Origin: Candidatus Gottesmanbacteria bacterium RIFCSPLOWO2_01_FULL_43_11b
Lineage (GTDB): Bacteria; Patescibacteriota; Microgenomatia; UBA10105; UBA927
DNA: 64,000 nucleotides
Assembly: GCA_001780985.1 (NCBI GenBank)
Contig: MFJV01000001.1
Location: forward strand, 158,980 to 222,979
Direction of reading: 5' to 3'
The position numbers and the translations under genes are program-made. A model generated the notes under the pieces. The model saw only the letters and a program-made list of their open reading frames with translations. It made no database searches and was not told where the DNA came from. Every line of letters starts with the position of its first letter. The first letter of the stretch is position 1. Below, piece by piece: positions 15,250-30,470 of the stretch.

Positions 15250-16224
15250 ATGACAAACCGTGAGACAATGACGTCGCAAGATGCCGTCGAAAGAGATGCA
15301 AGACTCGACAGCTGGCTTACAGAATTTCATAAAATCGTAGACCCAGAACTAGGAGTTTTGCGCTTCAACTTGAGAAAGTCCTGGGAACGATATGTTGAAG
15401 ACCATATTCACAGTCTTCTGCGCGACTTGCGTGATCCTGAAAATCGAATCAAACCAAAAACAGAAGATAATATAAAAATGATTCGCATACTCACGAGGGC
15501 TGACAGAAAATGGAAGATACTCTCGCAGCTCATTCGTCAGGGAGGGTTTATTGCTATATGGGATAATTCTCCTTTTGATGAAGAAGCTGAACACCGTTGG
15601 TTGAGAACCCGGGACGATTTTCCCAATCATTATTCTTTGAGAGTTGCTCATTCCAAACAATTGTTTGATTTATTGCAAACCCCGGTCTTCACATTGGACA
15701 CGGTCACCTTAGTCGATGGTCTACCGATAGAAAAACCAAAAACCATTGAAGACGCACAGGACAGAATCACACAGATGAGTGACAAGCAAATTTCCACTGA
15801 AACGGGTTGGGTTTTTGGGACCCAAGTAAAGTCCGGCGCATCCGTAACCCTCCTCAACAAAACTGGGATCACCTACCATGTTAAACCTGTTCTTCTATCA
15901 AACATCAATCGTTATCTTCAAACCGCATCATCGATTTTTGATGTGTCTGGAGGAATAGATTTAAGCTCTGTGCAGGCACGGACAGAATTTATTGATATGA
16001 ATGAGCCGGTAATGGTTTATAGTCACAATAATTACGCCGACACGGGGCAATTAACTCTGCGCGGTGAAGATATGAAAAGTCCTCTATTTGACCCTTTTTT
16101 TGCAGGTGTTCCAGTCCATGCTGTCAAAGCACTTCTTCCGCTGATTCCTGCAATTTATTTATTTGGAGACCCGTTTTACATGGAATCATCTTACATGGAA
16201 GCTAAAACCTCAAAAACGTCGTAA
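15250..16224 (+). CDS. hypothetical protein within the nucleoside-salvage cluster
   Basis: 324-aa ORF with non-repetitive, protein-like composition. No family recognised. Confidence 0.45.
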   Translation: MTNRETMTSQDAVERDARLDSWLTEFHKIVDPELGVLRFNLRKSWERYVEDHIHSLLRDLRDPENRIKPKTEDNIKMIRILTRADRKWKILSQLIRQGGFIAIWDNSPFDEEAEHRWLRTRDDFPNHYSLRVAHSKQLFDLLQTPVFTLDTVTLVDGLPIEKPKTIEDAQDRITQMSDKQISTETGWVFGTQVKSGASVTLLNKTGITYHVKPVLLSNINRYLQTASSIFDVSGGIDLSSVQARTEFIDMNEPVMVYSHNNYADTGQLTLRGEDMKSPLFDPFFAGVPVHAVKALLPLIPAIYLFGDPFYMESSYMEAKTSKTS

Positions 16225-16851: not shown

Positions 16852-17532
16852 TTATGCTTCTAATTGTCCAAGGTGGAGTATTTGGCGAGAACTTCCCATA
16901 ATAGGCTTTCCGGCAAGTGCTTTTTTTACAGTTGACACAAGTTTTTCTCTCGCCTTTTTGTAATGCACGATATCTAAATGATTTGTTTTCACAATTAATA
17001 CCCGGATGGATTTATTTTCCCGTAACCATTTGTGATTGAGCATATCGAGGAGCTCTAAATAACTTGTAGAAATCTGCTGTTCGTAGGTCCTCCCGCGTTT
17101 TTTAATGCGAGTTTGTAAAACTTCTGTAGACGTTTCCAAAAAAACAATAAGGTCTGGCGCCCGCATAAATGGCTCGAATGCTTTATACACTTTAAGGTAA
17201 AGCCACCACTCTGCTTCATCCATATTTCCCAACACGTATTGGGCTTTTCCGTACGAGAGTGCATCCTGTTGGATCGGCGTATCCTGGACTATTGAATATT
17301 TCTCTAGAATTTTTATCGTCTCGAGCATTTGTTTTATTTTTTCCATGAGAAAAAACATTTGCGAATGAAACGCCCATCGCTTCATGTCTTTATAAAAACG
17401 GGGCAAAAAAGCATTTTCACCAAAATGTTCTTCTAACAATTTGAATTTCAACTCGTGCGCCAGCAATTTAGCTACTGTGGTTTTCCCGGCGCCAATAGTA
17501 CCCATGATTGAAATGTATATTCTCTTTTTCAT
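16852..17532 (-). CDS. deoxynucleoside kinase (dAK/dGK/dCK family)
   Basis: IYISIMGTIGAGKTTVAKLL P-loop. The dNK-like body includes a DRY-like region. Confidence 0.8.
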   Translation of the reverse strand: MKKRIYISIMGTIGAGKTTVAKLLAHELKFKLLEEHFGENAFLPRFYKDMKRWAFHSQMFFLMEKIKQMLETIKILEKYSIVQDTPIQQDALSYGKAQYVLGNMDEAEWWLYLKVYKAFEPFMRAPDLIVFLETSTEVLQTRIKKRGRTYEQQISTSYLELLDMLNHKWLRENKSIRVLIVKTNHLDIVHYKKAREKLVSTVKKALAGKPIMGSSRQILHLGQLEA

Positions 17533-17611
17533 GTAAAACTTGACAATATTCTAGCATATCTTTAGTATGAAGAGGTTAGGTTCTTTAAAAGAGGGCGGAA
17601 ATTGGAAAATT

Positions 17612-17770
17612 TAAAGCGTGTGGACCAGCCCCTCGCGAGGAGCTGGTATACGAGGAAGGGGAAAATCGAATAGCCCGCCAGTCGGCGGATAAATCTGCGG
17701 ATACCCCTTGGTAGCGCTCTCTACCACAACAATAGACAGAAATGACTATTGAGGAGCCCGTCTCTCTTTC
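17612..17770 (+). ncRNA. glmS ribozyme (GlcN6P-responsive self-cleaving riboswitch), 5' leader of glmS
   Basis: AGCGUGUGGACCAGC...GCUGG is a P1 hairpin. ACGAGGAAGG...AUCGAAUAGCCCGCCAGUCGGCGGAU matches the conserved core GACGAGGA...AUCGAAUU..CGGCGGAUGCC of the B. subtilis glmS ribozyme. It lies directly upstream of glmS. Confidence 0.55.
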
Positions 17771-19554: not shown

Positions 19555-19860
19555 CTAACGGATTTCAGGAGAACCGACAAGTGTGACGTTTCCATACTCC
19601 GGAACTGAAGCATTCAATCGCCCTCCTTCAGTCATTTGTCCGACGCGTCCACCAAAATAGTTAACATTTCCATTATCTGATACCTGTACTTCTTCTCCCC
19701 AATGGAACGTCGCGGTTTCTCCGTCCACGACAACACGCAATCCATCAGCAATTCTTACGTCTCCAAGTAAAAATTCATGAATTCCCTGTAAAAGCTCTTG
19801 GTCAATAGGGGCAAATCCTTCTCCAGTTTGATAAATAGTTCCGCTTATGGTTGTTTTCAT
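19555..19860 (-). CDS. hypothetical protein co-transcribed with the ThyA-like gene
   Basis: 101 aa. 4-nt overlap with the upstream gene. Confidence 0.4.
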   Translation of the reverse strand: MKTTISGTIYQTGEGFAPIDQELLQGIHEFLLGDVRIADGLRVVVDGETATFHWGEEVQVSDNGNVNYFGGRVGQMTEGGRLNASVPEYGNVTLVGSPEIR

Positions 19861-21374
19861 AACTCCTTATTTGCCGCAGGATCCTGATTATATTTTTCCG
19901 CCTTGCCGAGTTTAATATAATATTCTGCACGTTGCAACTCTGTGCCGATGTAGATGAGGTGGCTGGGTAAAACCAAGTAATCGCCAATGTTGATCATTTG
20001 AATGTAGAGTTCCATCGCAGTTTTCCCCCGCCATTCTTTGAGAAGCAATCCTCCCTCTGGCGCGTAGAGCTTCACTACAATTTCATATATTTTTGATTTT
20101 TCGGCATACTTTGTCGGTCTGCCTACTTGATTTGACTGCTCAATTTCTATTGTTATATTTCCACGCCTGTCATCCTCAAACATTTGACGACTCGTATATC
20201 CTAGTTCTTTATCGTAGTTATCTTTGAGTATTTTTTCGACAAGTTCGTAATCGTCGCTATAGATATGGGCTGAATGGGTAATCATGACAAACGGGCCCAT
20301 TGTGTAGTCCGTCTCGTCGCTGACGAGTTTTTGGAGCTTCAAGAGACTAAACACGTTTCGCGGCCACCCGTGCACCATATCCTGACTTCGAAAGTGCGTT
20401 GTACAAAAGAGTTTGCTGTCTTGAATGGAAAATAACACTTGGGTGAGGCAAGGTGTATCACCTTTATTTACCTGATTCCAGTCTTCGCTCACTTTTGCAG
20501 TAAAAGCAACCATTTTTTTGCTAAACGGCCGATTTTTGATAAGTTCAATAATCTTTGCGATCTGATCGACATTGTCATGATTCCGTAATCTCTGACCGTA
20601 TGTATAAGCTATACCGGAAATTTGTTTAGCGGAAAGCACTTGCGGGTAATATTGTAAAAGCTCTGTTTTAGAAAACGGAAAATAGTGCGGTAAATACGGA
20701 TCTTCTGGATTCTCTTTATACACAACTGCCATCACGTTGAGAAGCTCTTTGAGTTCATTTTCCTGGGTATATCGTGTTTGCTTATTTCTCCCGTAACGCA
20801 TAATATTTTGAAGAATTTTAAGCCAGGTTTGGGCCGCTGTATCGCCGTCAATACGAAACCCAATCTGTTCACTGGGGTATGTGAAAGGCTTTGGTCTACT
20901 CGTTGGGAAAACCTTGGGTTTTGTGAAGGGTTGAACACGCTCCTTACTCAATATATCAACCGTCTTTTGGAGCTCACTGACGGGCTTTCCGCGAAGATTG
21001 ATCACTTCTACACTTTTTCGAAACTGGTCAATAGCATCTTTTCCAATCTCTTTTTCTATCTGCCCCTTCTTTTCGTCACCGACGATGAAAAACTCATTGT
21101 CTACCCCATTTTGCATGAGATTTACTAGCGCCTGCCCGCTTCTCGATAAATCAGCACCCCATAGCACTATTTTCCTCACATGCGGGTTTGCATAGATATT
21201 CCGAATCATGGCTGAAATTCCGGCCGACGAGTAGAGATTCCCGATTGCACAGTAATTTGTGGCCTCAAGCATCTTGGCCACTACCTGTCGTTCCGTCCAC
21301 ATAACGGCAACCCCCACGGGATTGTTCGGATCTTTCACTTGGAGCACGTGACGATATAGTATTGGCCAATCCAT
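19857..21374 (-). CDS. thymidylate synthase (ThyA)-like protein with an extra N-terminal domain (~170 aa) and C-terminal domain (~125 aa)
   Basis: Central region, residues ~175-375: YGQRLRNHDNVDQIAKIIELIKNRPFSKKMVAFTA...PCLTQVLFSIQDSKLFCTTHFRSQDMVHGWPRNVFS...ITHSAHIY. This matches the ThyA core (YGxQWR, IDQI..V, PCH, RS.D, GD.HIY). Confidence 0.6.
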   Translation of the reverse strand: MDWPILYRHVLQVKDPNNPVGVAVMWTERQVVAKMLEATNYCAIGNLYSSAGISAMIRNIYANPHVRKIVLWGADLSRSGQALVNLMQNGVDNEFFIVGDEKKGQIEKEIGKDAIDQFRKSVEVINLRGKPVSELQKTVDILSKERVQPFTKPKVFPTSRPKPFTYPSEQIGFRIDGDTAAQTWLKILQNIMRYGRNKQTRYTQENELKELLNVMAVVYKENPEDPYLPHYFPFSKTELLQYYPQVLSAKQISGIAYTYGQRLRNHDNVDQIAKIIELIKNRPFSKKMVAFTAKVSEDWNQVNKGDTPCLTQVLFSIQDSKLFCTTHFRSQDMVHGWPRNVFSLLKLQKLVSDETDYTMGPFVMITHSAHIYSDDYELVEKILKDNYDKELGYTSRQMFEDDRRGNITIEIEQSNQVGRPTKYAEKSKIYEIVVKLYAPEGGLLLKEWRGKTAMELYIQMINIGDYLVLPSHLIYIGTELQRAEYYIKLGKAEKYNQDPAANKEL

Positions 21375-21973
21375 TATCTTTCCATTCCTATCTTACTTGG
21401 CAGGGGCTTACGCTGACCGATATATTTTGCGGTCTTACGCTTGTAGTACGGCATTTGTGCTGGGCTTGTAAGTTCTTCAAATACTATTGAGCAAATACGC
21501 ATCCCGGGGTATAACATGACTGGGATTCTGCCCATATTGGCAAGTTCCAGTGTGATATGCCCCCGAAATCCAGCGTCTATATTTGCTGCTGTTGAGTGCA
21601 CGACTACCCCCATCCGTCCGATTGAAGACCTACCCTCAAGCTCACCGGTCAAATCTGCCGGCATTTCTATGTATTCGCGAGTTACCGCAAGAATAAATTC
21701 GCCGGAGTGGATGGTAAACGCTTCCCCGTTTTTCACTCTCACTTCGTGAGTGAGATCTATAAGTGTTGACGGGTCTTTGGGATCGATATATGGGGTTTTG
21801 CTGTGATTAAATACCCTATACACATTGCCTAACCGTAAATCCAGTTTACAGCTTCCGAGCTGCTCTTCGAAATTTGGCTTCGGCACTATCTTTACTTTTC
21901 CGCTTCTTATTGCCTTTTTAATATCACGGTCGGAGAGAATCATGGAGAAAGTATAGGGAAATTTATTCACCAA
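21374..21973 (-). CDS. dcd: dCTP deaminase (dUTPase superfamily)
   Basis: 199 aa. MILSDRDIKKAI...KLDLRLGN...AANIDAGFRGHITLEL, typical of Dcd. Confidence 0.8.
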   Translation of the reverse strand: MVNKFPYTFSMILSDRDIKKAIRSGKVKIVPKPNFEEQLGSCKLDLRLGNVYRVFNHSKTPYIDPKDPSTLIDLTHEVRVKNGEAFTIHSGEFILAVTREYIEMPADLTGELEGRSSIGRMGVVVHSTAANIDAGFRGHITLELANMGRIPVMLYPGMRICSIVFEELTSPAQMPYYKRKTAKYIGQRKPLPSKIGMER

Positions 21974-27966: not shown

Positions 27967-28663
27967 CATGTTTATTCCCGGTTTTCACCGGGGCATGGAC
28001 TATATCTTCATCCGCAAAAATTGACGTTTTTCTGGATGAACCGAACCAATTATTTTTGCAAAATCGTTGTAAGACCTTGCCGAAATATAAAATCTCCAAT
28101 AATTCGGATCAACCGTTTTACTAGGATTATGAATTACTCCACAATGAATACTTAATTCTTCTAAATAGTGTTTTACTTGTAAAAGATCTTGCTTGTCCTT
28201 TTGACAAAAATACAAGTAATACCTCACCGAAGAATTTTTAGCAATACCACCTTCTGCATCGAAATAACCTCGGATATATTCGATTTTGTCGTTCTTAGAA
28301 CGTATTTCAATATCTCGTAAAATCTTTTTCGGAAATTCTACTATCCAAAGATTACGAGACTTTCCTTCTTTATATATCCAAGCTCCAACATGTAATTTAC
28401 GAATTCCTATTTTTAGAAACTGCGCAAATTCTCTACTGTTAGTTGCTATTCGATAGGTAGATTGCCGACTGGTACCATCGTGAGCCATTCCCAATAAATA
28501 TGGTTTCGTCATATGCGGCGCCAACGTGTAGTCTCTACGGAGTCCCCGATATAATCAGGGTTCCCTCGGTATTCCCATATGTTGATTATAAACCAAGCAT
28601 GAAGGGTTCACCGATACAGTTGGATTTTCCCATACCCTTACGGATATGGGTCGCAACAAACTT
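27967..28663 (-). mobile_element. group-I-like intron in 16S rRNA between AAGTCGT and AACAAGG (about E. coli position 1498/1499)
   Basis: The conserved 16S sequence CCTTGTT|ACGACTT is split by 697 nt. The 5' exon ends in U and the intron ends in G (omega-G). It contains a LAGLIDADG ORF. Confidence 0.6.
28000..28524 (-). CDS. intron-encoded LAGLIDADG homing endonuclease
   Basis: 174 aa. LAGLIDADG-type motif YIRGYFDAEGGIA. Basic, inside the 16S intron. Confidence 0.65.
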   Translation of the reverse strand: MAPHMTKPYLLGMAHDGTSRQSTYRIATNSREFAQFLKIGIRKLHVGAWIYKEGKSRNLWIVEFPKKILRDIEIRSKNDKIEYIRGYFDAEGGIAKNSSVRYYLYFCQKDKQDLLQVKHYLEELSIHCGVIHNPSKTVDPNYWRFYISARSYNDFAKIIGSVHPEKRQFLRMKI

Positions 28664-29056
28664 ACGACTTAGTCCCCATCGCTGAGTTCGGCTTCGACCG
28701 TAAAAACGGCCTTCAGCCGCCCCCAACTTTGTTGGCTTGACGGGCGGTGTGTACAAGACCCGAGAACGTATTCACCGCAGCCTTCTGATCTGCGATTACT
28801 ACCGATTCCGACTTCATGAGGGCGGGTTGCAGCCCTCAATCTGAACTGAGGCGAAATTTCAGGGATTTGCTTGCCATTACTAGTTTGCATCCCATTGTTT
28901 TTCGCCATTGTAGGGTGTGTGTTACCCAGGGTATAAGCGCCGTGCTGACTTGACGTCGTCCGTTCCTTCCTCCCCGATACATATCGGGGCAGTCTCCGAT
29001 GACACTTATAACATCGGATACGGGTTGCGCTCGTTCTCCTACTTAAAGGAACACCC

Positions 29057-29087
<31 letters not shown>

Positions 29088-29202
29088 GCTGTGATACCAT
29101 CCTTGCGGATAGCCTACTATTTCTAGCGGGTTAAAACGGTACCATGTCAAACCCTGGTAAGGTTTTTCGCTTTGTCTCGAATTGAACCACACGCTCCACC
29201 GG

Positions 29203-29234
<32 letters not shown>

Positions 29235-30286
29235 TAATCTTGCGATCGTACTCCCCAGGCGGTCTGCTTAACGCGTTAGCTTACGTCAGTCCCCCTTGCG
29301 GCGGACCAACTAGCAGACATGCGTTTAGGGCTAGGACTACGCAGGTCTCTAATCTGCTTCGCTCCCCTAGCTTTCGTGTCTCAGCGTTAGGTGTGGGCCA
29401 GAAAGGTGCCTTCGCCTTTGGTGTTCCTCATGATATCAACGCATTTCACTGCTTCACCATGAGTTCCCCTTTCCTCTCCCATCCTCAAAGACTCCCCATC
29501 TCGAACCCAACGCCGAGGTTAAGCCTCGGGCTTTCAGGTTCGATGCGGAAATCCGCCTACACGACACTTTACGCCCAGTGAATCCGGATAACGCTTGCAC
29601 CCTACGTATTACCGCGACTGCTGGCCCGCCACAATTTTTTGTAGCGAACTTTGGACTATATCATCACCCCACAGATTGGGGGTCTCGCGTGTAGTCTCTG
29701 AGGACTCTCCCCGCCATCCTTTCATTATAAATGAAGGCGGAGGTTGCCTGCTGATTGTCTTGATACATGCTTGCTTTCGCAAAACTATTTCGCGGACATA
29801 TCAAGGTGTTCCAGCATATAGCGAGATTTTCTTTTACCGTATTACTACAGTAACTACGCACCATCCGATTACATCGAATCACGTAGTTTGTAGGTGCTTA
29901 TTCGCCAAACCTCGATGATCTGGCAAAAGAGGTTTACATACCGAAATACTTCATCCCTCACGCGGCGTCGCTCGGTCAGGCTTTCGCCCATTGCCGAATA
30001 TTCCTAGTTGCTGCCATCCGTAGATGTATAGCCCGTGTCTCAGTGCTATTGTGGGGGGTCGCGCTCTCACGCCCCCTACCCGTCATCGCCTTGGTAGGCC
30101 ATTACCCCACCAACAAGCTGATAGGAGCAAGGCCGCTCTTCCTCCGTGCCGTTACGCACTTTGATCTTACGACCTCATGGAATATTACCCCGTCTTTCGA
30201 CGAGCTATGTTCCAGAAAAAGGTACGTTCCTTGCTTATACTCACCCGTCCGCCACTAATCTTTCGACCGTTCAACTTGCATGCCTA

Positions 30287-30329
<43 letters not shown>

Positions 30330-30470
30330 AAAAAAAATTAACGTCCCGGATATCATGATTCGCTTACGCTCATCACCATCCGGGTCCGGCTGATGTCGCA
30401 ACGCGACATAATAGCCGGATTCCTATCACCATTCGTTTGTCAAATGTTAATGTGCGACTCTCAATGAGCG

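Follow-up and report, generated by a model that had tools for sequence, protein, structure and literature searches.

We know of only two recognised classes of thymidylate synthase (TS), ThyA and ThyX, and the reaction that they serve is essential and a classic drug target. In classical ThyA (EC 2.1.1.45; PF00303), represented by the Escherichia coli and Lactobacillus casei enzymes, the C-terminal tail closes over the folate. Members of a more compact kind, the methanogen-type TS (TIGR03283), of which we take MJ0757 to be an example, are about 200 aa long and stand alone. The cofactor use of the methanogen-type enzymes is unsettled (PMC9012536). A larger arrangement is the bifunctional dihydrofolate reductase (DHFR)-TS of protists, about 510 aa long and with an extra domain N-terminal of the TS. 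Here we describe a 505-aa protein of similar length in which a ThyA-fold core is placed between an MtrA-like domain and a DUF4346 module. Its gene lies in a 64,000-nt stretch of DNA from Candidatus Gottesmanbacteria bacterium RIFCSPLOWO2_01_FULL_43_11b (contig MFJV01000001.1, positions 158,980 to 222,979), hereafter the window, to which all coordinates refer. The gene and its parts are:

19857..21374, (-) strand: three-domain TS gene, 505 aa, from the open reading frame (ORF) list and an exact-sequence look-up; PF04208, PF00303 and PF14251
20940..21374, (-) strand: N-terminal MtrA-like Rossmann-type domain, residues 1-145; PF04208
20865..20939, (-) strand: Pro-rich linker, residues 146-170; F156, P157 and P167 conserved in the family alignment
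20052..20864, (-) strand: ThyA-fold catalytic domain, residues ~171-441; from PF00303, TIGR03283, hhalign and Foldseek
20448..20450, (-) strand: codon of the predicted catalytic Cys309, in TPCL; computed coordinates
20091..20135, (-) strand: clade-specific insertion, residues 414-428, SNQVGRPTKYAEKSK, in the C-terminal β-hairpin of the TS fold
19860..20051, (-) strand: extra C-terminal module, residues 442-505; a strand and two helices, the conserved core of PF14251 / DUF4346

The ThyA-fold core

By exact-sequence match the product is OGG23787.1 (UniProt A0A1F6AHP9) of Candidatus Gottesmanbacteria, which is annotated as a hypothetical or uncharacterized protein. All three Pfam domains exceed their gathering scores. 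The full-length AF2 model, with a 57-sequence alignment as input, has a predicted local distance difference test score (pLDDT) of 91.5 and a predicted template modelling (TM) score of 0.87, and the modelled protein is therefore a single compact body. We favour, with a probability of roughly 75%, the reading that this protein is the cell's ThyA-class TS, of the compact archaeal (“methanogen-type”) kind, set within an MtrA-like/DUF4346 module.

The initial annotation of this DNA, made from the sequence alone, had described a 505-aa ORF with a divergent ThyA core, and the family searches bore this out. PF00303 (Thymidylat_synt) matches residues 255-387 with 75.7 bits (cutoff 24.3), thymidylate synthases in the PDB were matched by sequence down to an E-value of 7.5e-13, and a Foldseek search with the AF2 model returned the TS fold with E-values of about 1e-12 against PDB TS structures. 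Alignment by hhalign to the E. coli, human and L. casei ThyA proteins gave a probability of 99.2 and covered E. coli residues 2-259. The best NCBIfam TS model is the methanogen-type TIGR03283, which aligns with residues 176-377 over its full length (model positions 4-199 of 201; 135.7 bits, E 1.4e-39), whereas the bacterial ThyA models follow behind at about 65 bits. The compact core is the same as that of the methanogen-type enzymes; the 201 positions of their model include none for either flanking module.

The PCL Cys, FRSQD and HSAHIY motifs read from the sequence at first were all located (TPCL with Cys309, residues 328-332 and residues 367-372, respectively). Alignment with E. coli ThyA pairs Y94 with Y259, D110-Q111 with D270-Q271, R126/R127 with K286/K287, C146 with C309, R166/S167/D169 with R329/S330/D332, N177 with N340, and H207/Y209 with H370/Y372. 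Conservation of these residues was assessed over 202 sequences, of which 76 came from species genomes, 69 from viral contigs and 57 from a representative set in which identity does not exceed 50%. C309, R329, S330 and Y259 are each kept in 200 of the 202, N340 in 199, D332 and H370 in 198 each, and Y372 in 196; the Cys nucleophile is present in 55/57 representatives, in all 76 species genomes and in all 69 viral contigs. The protein shares with classical ThyA the fold, the Cys nucleophile, RSxD, the uracil-specifying Asn, H-x-Y, the equivalent of Tyr94, the DQI helix and the C-terminal β-hairpin (with DPRG for EPRP), at an identity of about 20-27%. It differs in having neither the DRTGTGT loop nor the small domain, in a tail replaced by the module of ~64 aa, and in the MtrA-like domain of ~145 aa that stands ahead of the core.

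The absence of a canonical phosphate loop, already apparent in the initial annotation, was confirmed. R201 aligns with E. coli R21, in a column that holds E, Q, H or G in relatives, while the positions of R126/R127 are occupied by K286/K287 in the Gottesmanbacteria protein, by R-R in most relatives and by A-S in phage copies, which carry G, A and S at the R21, R126 and R127 positions. More generally, the N-terminal half of the TS domain is hard to align to canonical ThyA.

At its other end the ThyA fold reaches approximately residue 440. Family-profile alignments to canonical TS run through a DRRGN segment (family consensus DPRGN; canonical counterpart EPRP) and two β-strands and, in the canonical chains that align furthest, end about 5-15 residues short of the C-terminus. 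Because the fold runs this far, the extra C-terminal module comprises about 64 aa, and not the ~125 aa beyond a core ending near residue 375 that had been proposed. The idea that the flanks are merely insertions in a TS fold holds in part for what was taken as the C-terminal domain, in its first 40 residues, and fails for the N-terminal domain. In relatives, the Pfam TS model overlaps PF14251 by about 27 residues. The insertion at residues 414-428 is confined to Gottesmanbacteria-type sequences in the family alignment and has a pLDDT of 68-78 in the model.

Several points weigh against the favoured assignment. With 135.7 bits the protein misses the TIGR03283 equivalog cutoff of 174.55, and profile scores fail to separate thymidylate synthases from hydroxymethylases (72 bits for MilA and 72-94 for the synthases). 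The closest small structural match found by Foldseek is a phage dCMP hydroxylase, 9iqu (TM-score 0.81, 18% identity). In addition, the stand-alone methanogen-type TS is itself poorly characterised, and the biochemistry of archaeal ThyA is largely unexplored (PMC9012536, PMC9931769). Some of these observations would be expected if the protein carried out another reaction on the TS fold, as a pyrimidine hydroxymethylase, a hydroxylase or a nucleotide-modifying enzyme, and did not make dTMP, a reading that we consider quite unlikely. It is favoured by the presence of both 9iqu and the CMP hydroxymethylase MilA among the top Foldseek matches, by the similar family-profile scores of MilA and E. coli TS, by a divergent first half of the TS domain, where both the R21 loop and the E58 region lie, and by the phage-borne nature of many copies. 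On the other hand, dCMP hydroxymethylases such as T4 gp42 have Asp at the position of E. coli N177, where 199 of the 202 family sequences have Asn, and the residues that bind the 3′-OH of dUMP are conserved. The different substrate suggested in the initial annotation is disfavoured by this Asn and the conserved deoxyribose-binding His and Tyr, as well as by the partners described below, namely dcd, tmk, ribonucleotide reductase and a fused dCMP deaminase.

The flanking modules

Neither flank had been recognised in the initial annotation, but both belong to Pfam families. PF04208 (MtrA) matches residues 2-128 with 44 bits (cutoff 25), and the MtrA structure 5laa is matched with an E-value of 9e-10 from the single sequence and 7e-23 from the family profile. 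With MtrA and its cytoplasmic homologues (5laa, 5l8x, 8q3v) the domain shares the Rossmann-type fold, the WP start, and the G..GI...I.N..xNPxIR..vLCG, NG.D and EIP regions; its conserved motifs in the family are W26, GNLYS (residues 45-49), G52 and IRN (residues 57-59). It scores only 47-50 bits against the MtrA equivalog TIGR01111, under the cutoff of 249.15. In place of a transmembrane helix it leads into the TS fold, and there is no membrane anchor.

MtrA is the corrinoid subunit of the methyl-tetrahydromethanopterin:coenzyme M methyltransferase. In its cobalamin site, His84 ligates the cobalt, Glu54 takes part in a hydrogen-bond relay together with a GAIPF/YxEN segment at the site, and the nucleotide tail is ringed by Thr53, Asn55, Gly57, Val61 and Asn64 (PMC4915002). 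In the three-domain family, none of the 57 members aligned has His in the His84 column, which holds S, T, A, M, G or D instead. Ser stands in the place of Glu54, Thr53 is deleted, and the family alignment lacks the conserved GAIPF/YxEN meander. Because the equivalents of these elements are gone, the N-terminal domain is, by its sequence, an MtrA fold without the MtrA-type His-on corrinoid site. Gly57 and Asn64 are kept and align with G52 and N59. Since the best-conserved part of the domain consists of the loops that grip the corrinoid in MtrA (GNLYS, G52, IRN and CGxD..SG), the alignment suggests that a binding surface has been kept, for something other than a corrinoid.

The domain could be read differently, as the seat of a cobamide bound in the His-off form. 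A corrinoid-dependent TS of this kind would have its cobamide on the MtrA-like domain methylated by a methyl-pterin held near DUF4346, and would pass the methyl group to Cys-activated dUMP without forming dihydrofolate. The domain is a true homologue of the corrinoid subunit, part of the nucleotide-tail pocket persists in G52 and N59, the module co-occurs with pterin-binding, methyltransferase-like proteins, and a long ribonucleotide reductase is found in some related loci. Nevertheless, we hold this mechanism to be highly improbable, given the missing His84, Glu54, Thr53 and GAIPF/YxEN equivalents and the retention of D332 and Y259, which serve the classical methylene and hydride chemistry.

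A DHFR-like N-terminal domain was also considered and was rejected because the domain is MtrA-like. Consistent with the lack of DHFR motifs noted in the initial annotation, no DHFR, flavin or NAD(P)-binding family was matched in Pfam or NCBIfam, and no GxGxxG-type motif was found. Although the Trypanosoma cruzi DHFR-TS heads the Foldseek list, it does so through its TS half only (TM-score 0.33, root-mean-square deviation 21 Å), and the present protein differs from the protist enzymes in the nature of its N-terminal domain (no PF00186) and in the added C-terminal module. The linker that joins the N-terminal domain to the core has no secondary structure in the AF2 model, where the pLDDT falls to 70.

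At the C-terminus, PF14251 (PterinBD-DUF4346) matches residues 430-498 with 37.4 bits in the whole protein and 41.3 bits in the isolated C-terminal region, against a cutoff of 29.6. It matches all 32 of 32 C-terminal regions from the family, with a best E-value of 2e-23, and H472, E479, Q497 and D498 are invariant in the module. An isolated model of the domain (pLDDT 84.7) has the topology β-β-β-α-α, and the module occupies the place of the canonical ThyA tail. Neither sequence profiles nor Foldseek revealed a relative of the module in the PDB, and no reductase was among the structural matches. Pterin binding is implied by the family name and may apply here; the literature search returned no paper on PF14251 or its family name.

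The C-terminal region is also shared with families that are not thymidylate synthases, through residues 430-501 for NF002128 and 448-498 for TIGR00284, although the scores against both are far below the family cutoffs. The NF002128 “MtrA” homologues contain both modules, the MtrA-like part at positions 127-275 and the DUF4346 part at positions 304-371. The two modules are contiguous there, whereas in the three-domain protein the TS fold is inserted between them. In the archaeal TIGR00284 proteins, which resemble dihydropteroate synthase (DHPS), only the DUF4346-like C-terminus that follows the DHPS-like domain is matched (positions 447-494). Across the three-domain family, phage copies included, W26, Y48, G52, R58, D402, H472 and Q497 show little or no variation, and by this measure the accessory modules are under selection in cells and phages alike.

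Genomic context and distribution

The neighbouring genes discussed below are:

21374..21973, (-) strand: dcd (dCTP deaminase); TIGR02274, 205.7 bits (cutoff 92.8); PF22769, 154 bits
19555..19860, (-) strand: ORF of 101 aa (ORF101), overlapping the TS stop
16852..17532, (-) strand: deoxynucleoside kinase; PF01712, 151 bits
14549..15205, (-) strand: tmk (thymidylate kinase); PF02223, 80.6 bits
13971..14552, (-) strand: tdk (thymidine kinase); PF00265, 141 bits
11845..13152, (-) strand: glyA (serine hydroxymethyltransferase); PF00464, 512.6 bits; 47% identity to E. coli GlyA

The operon with dcd proposed in the initial annotation stands: the dcd stop and the TS start share one nucleotide (TAATG), and the TS stop overlaps the start of ORF101 (ATGA). 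The neighbourhood of glyA, about 6.7 kb from the TS gene, was likewise confirmed. The listed dcd ORF begins at a TTG, 10 codons before the start of its homologues, and the exact long form is missing from the protein collection; translation probably begins at 21943 (MILSDRDI...), 30 nt downstream of the annotated start. A scan for promoters and terminators around the operon gave counts within chance.

ORF101 was considered as a conserved partner of the TS and was rejected because it is an orphan. When searched against 5.8 billion proteins it matched only its own 3-member cluster, no homolog was present in 79 related loci, and it matched nothing in Pfam or NCBIfam. Its GC content at third codon positions is 0.30, compared with 0.455 for the TS gene. 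It lies outside the conserved unit and is possibly not a real gene.

Among 76 genomic loci of the family, dcd adjoins the TS gene in 42, mostly directly upstream and on the same strand. The other neighbours are tmk (26 loci), topA (16), a P-loop kinase of ~180 aa (10) and a long ribonucleotide reductase (8). Ribonucleotide reductase is also adjacent in 32 viral loci, as large and small subunit-like genes named from their sequences. All of these gene links point to the supply of dUMP and the use of dTMP. With regard to a hydroxymethylase-like or other modifying activity, the linkage to tmk and dcd, which recurs in three unrelated groups spanning bacteria and archaea, and the lack of a second TS in the window argue against it and agree with dTMP synthesis.

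We also searched for the genes of folate and dUMP metabolism. The window covers 64 kb of a genome of about 1 Mb, and the results for folA, thyX and dut apply to this window only: no homologue was detected there by tblastn when FolA, FolD and Dut of E. coli and ThyX of Thermotoga maritima served as queries, and a scan for the ThyX motif gave a single match, in a non-coding frame. E. coli FolA was also used as a query against the 79 related loci (tblastn) and the ORFs of 80 viral loci (blastp), again with no match. These results bear on the possibility that the protein is a bifunctional TS and pterin reductase, in which the two accessory modules, MtrA-like and DUF4346, would reduce the dihydropterin again in place, independently of FolA, as a functional analogue of the protist DHFR-TS. 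Such an enzyme would fit with the failure to find FolA, with the lack of a reductase-like or otherwise unknown conserved neighbour among the related loci, and with the presence of folA in only 54.8% of 4581 genomes of the Candidate Phyla Radiation (CPR) (PMC11974145). The Rossmann-type fold of the N-terminal domain (PMC4915002) and the association of the C-terminal module with another pterin enzyme, the DHPS-like TIGR00284, point in the same direction. However, divergent DHFRs are easily missed by a search with E. coli FolA, and the absence of folA within 6 kb on either side of the gene tells little of whole genomes. The partner reductase or flavin domain envisaged in the initial annotation also fails to appear in the protein itself: the N-terminal domain has an MtrA fold, matches none of the DHFR, flavin and NAD(P) families and shows no GxGxxG-type motif, and the C-terminal module has no solved relative and matches no reductase structure. 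We therefore regard a pterin reductase in this protein as unlikely.

To determine how widespread the architecture is, we scanned 1.84 billion cluster representatives with HMMER at a threshold of E<=1e-30. The scan yielded 279 clusters at 50% identity, nearly all of 460-530 aa and matching end to end. At least 574 GTDB species genomes were confirmed to carry it (574 of 600 pattern-matched stretches, with one genome per species), and the hosts include many lineages of Patescibacteria, Chloroflexota, and DPANN archaea (Woese-, Nano-, Micr- and Aenigmatarchaeota). The full architecture is also carried by at least 108 IMG/VR contigs of uncultured viruses, up to ~200 kb long, and by none of 50,697 GenBank phage records. 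The wide spread of the architecture among reduced genomes is most simply explained by a housekeeping role, which again speaks against a modifying enzyme; the three-domain form appears to be the standard TS in much of Patescibacteria. The family proteins are named “hypothetical protein” or “thymidylate synthase” in the databases. Searches of the literature for TS with MtrA, with CPR and DHFR, and with DPANN, and for MJ0107 and MJ0757, found nothing on the fusion. As neither the fusion nor PF14251 has a paper that we could find, the protein is an uncharacterised architectural variant of ThyA-type TS that is already visible in databases and widespread. The fusion suspected in the initial annotation to be uncharacterised is so, and the alternative that it is a common, characterised subfamily is correct as to common (by the counts above), whereas no characterisation was found in the literature searched.

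Variants of the architecture were observed in several members. One protein of 733 aa (P0154) has the three domains followed by a C-terminal dCMP/cytidine deaminase (PF00383, residues 568-675), and this fusion ties the family to the supply of dUMP. Another, of 837 aa (P0200), has the MtrA-like, TS and DUF4346 parts followed by a second TS and DUF4346. The second copy reads PSL instead of PCL and is, with its nucleophile lost, presumably a pseudo-enzyme. Viral copies have A or V at R404, and one of them (L110) has an insertion of ~30 aa ahead of PCL. Gottesmanbacteria-like copies with ~80% identity also occur in many “binchicken” metagenome-assembled genomes titled “uncultured Gammaproteobacteria/Pseudomonadales” (L001, L008, L010, L011 and others). 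These titles look like placeholder taxonomy, and the contigs are Patescibacteria-like in context.

Three further features of the window were recorded. A Maf-like protein (15250..16224, (+) strand; PF02545 at residues 93-240) whose extensions at both termini are unexplained lies amid tdk, tmk, a haloacid dehalogenase-type (HAD) gene and the deoxynucleoside kinase. A glmS ribozyme/riboswitch (17604..17761, (+) strand; RF00234, 43.7 bits) is located just upstream of glmS; because the TTG start in the ORF list (17749) falls inside the ribozyme, the real start of glmS is probably the Met of MCGIFGY. Finally, a bacterial 16S rRNA gene of 1720 nt (28616..30335, (-) strand) contains a group I intron (29631..29890; RF00028, 57 bits) and has no 23S gene beside it, while tRNA-Cys and tRNA-Ile follow downstream. 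Group I introns in 16S rRNA are common in CPR bacteria.

Proposed mechanism and significance

Under the favoured reading, the dcd-thyA operon would encode an enzyme that converts dUMP and 5,10-methylene-tetrahydropterin or -folate to dTMP and dihydropterin. By homology, Cys309 would attack C6 of dUMP, which would be held by R329/S330, by N340 (uracil O4/N3) and by H370/Y372 (3′-OH), and probably also by K286/K287 from the partner subunit. C5 of dUMP would then attack the methylene group of the pterin cofactor, with D332 positioning the cofactor, and Y259 would aid the removal of the C5 proton before hydride transfer yields dTMP. GlyA would provide the one-carbon unit as the likely source of methylene-tetrahydrofolate, Dcd would provide the uracil nucleotide, and Tmk would carry dTMP onward.

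The accessory modules would form part of the cofactor and substrate pocket, as a replacement lid and a binding surface for the pterin cofactor, and might stand in for the non-conserved phosphate-binding arginines, for example via the invariant R58. This role, as a lid over the cofactor or a surface that binds it and perhaps as part of the phosphate site, is the most likely one; we infer it from where the modules sit, how well they are conserved and how variable the canonical arginines are. There is also a slim chance that the MtrA-like/DUF4346 module provides cofactor chemistry beyond that of ThyA, with a held pterin or a His-off corrinoid recycled on the enzyme, such that dTMP would be made without the release of dihydrofolate and without FolA. 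If true, on-enzyme recycling would explain why phages and the reduced genomes of CPR and DPANN organisms favour this protein, and the protein would in effect represent a third mechanistic class beside ThyA and ThyX.

For the cofactor lid and binding surface that we favour, as for other roles, establishing what the accessory modules do would show how reduced organisms bind or recycle the one-carbon carrier, and it bears on the cofactor use of archaeal thymidylate synthases. It would also give PF14251 and the non-corrinoid MtrA-like domains, which occur beside archaeal DHPS-like proteins as well, their first function.

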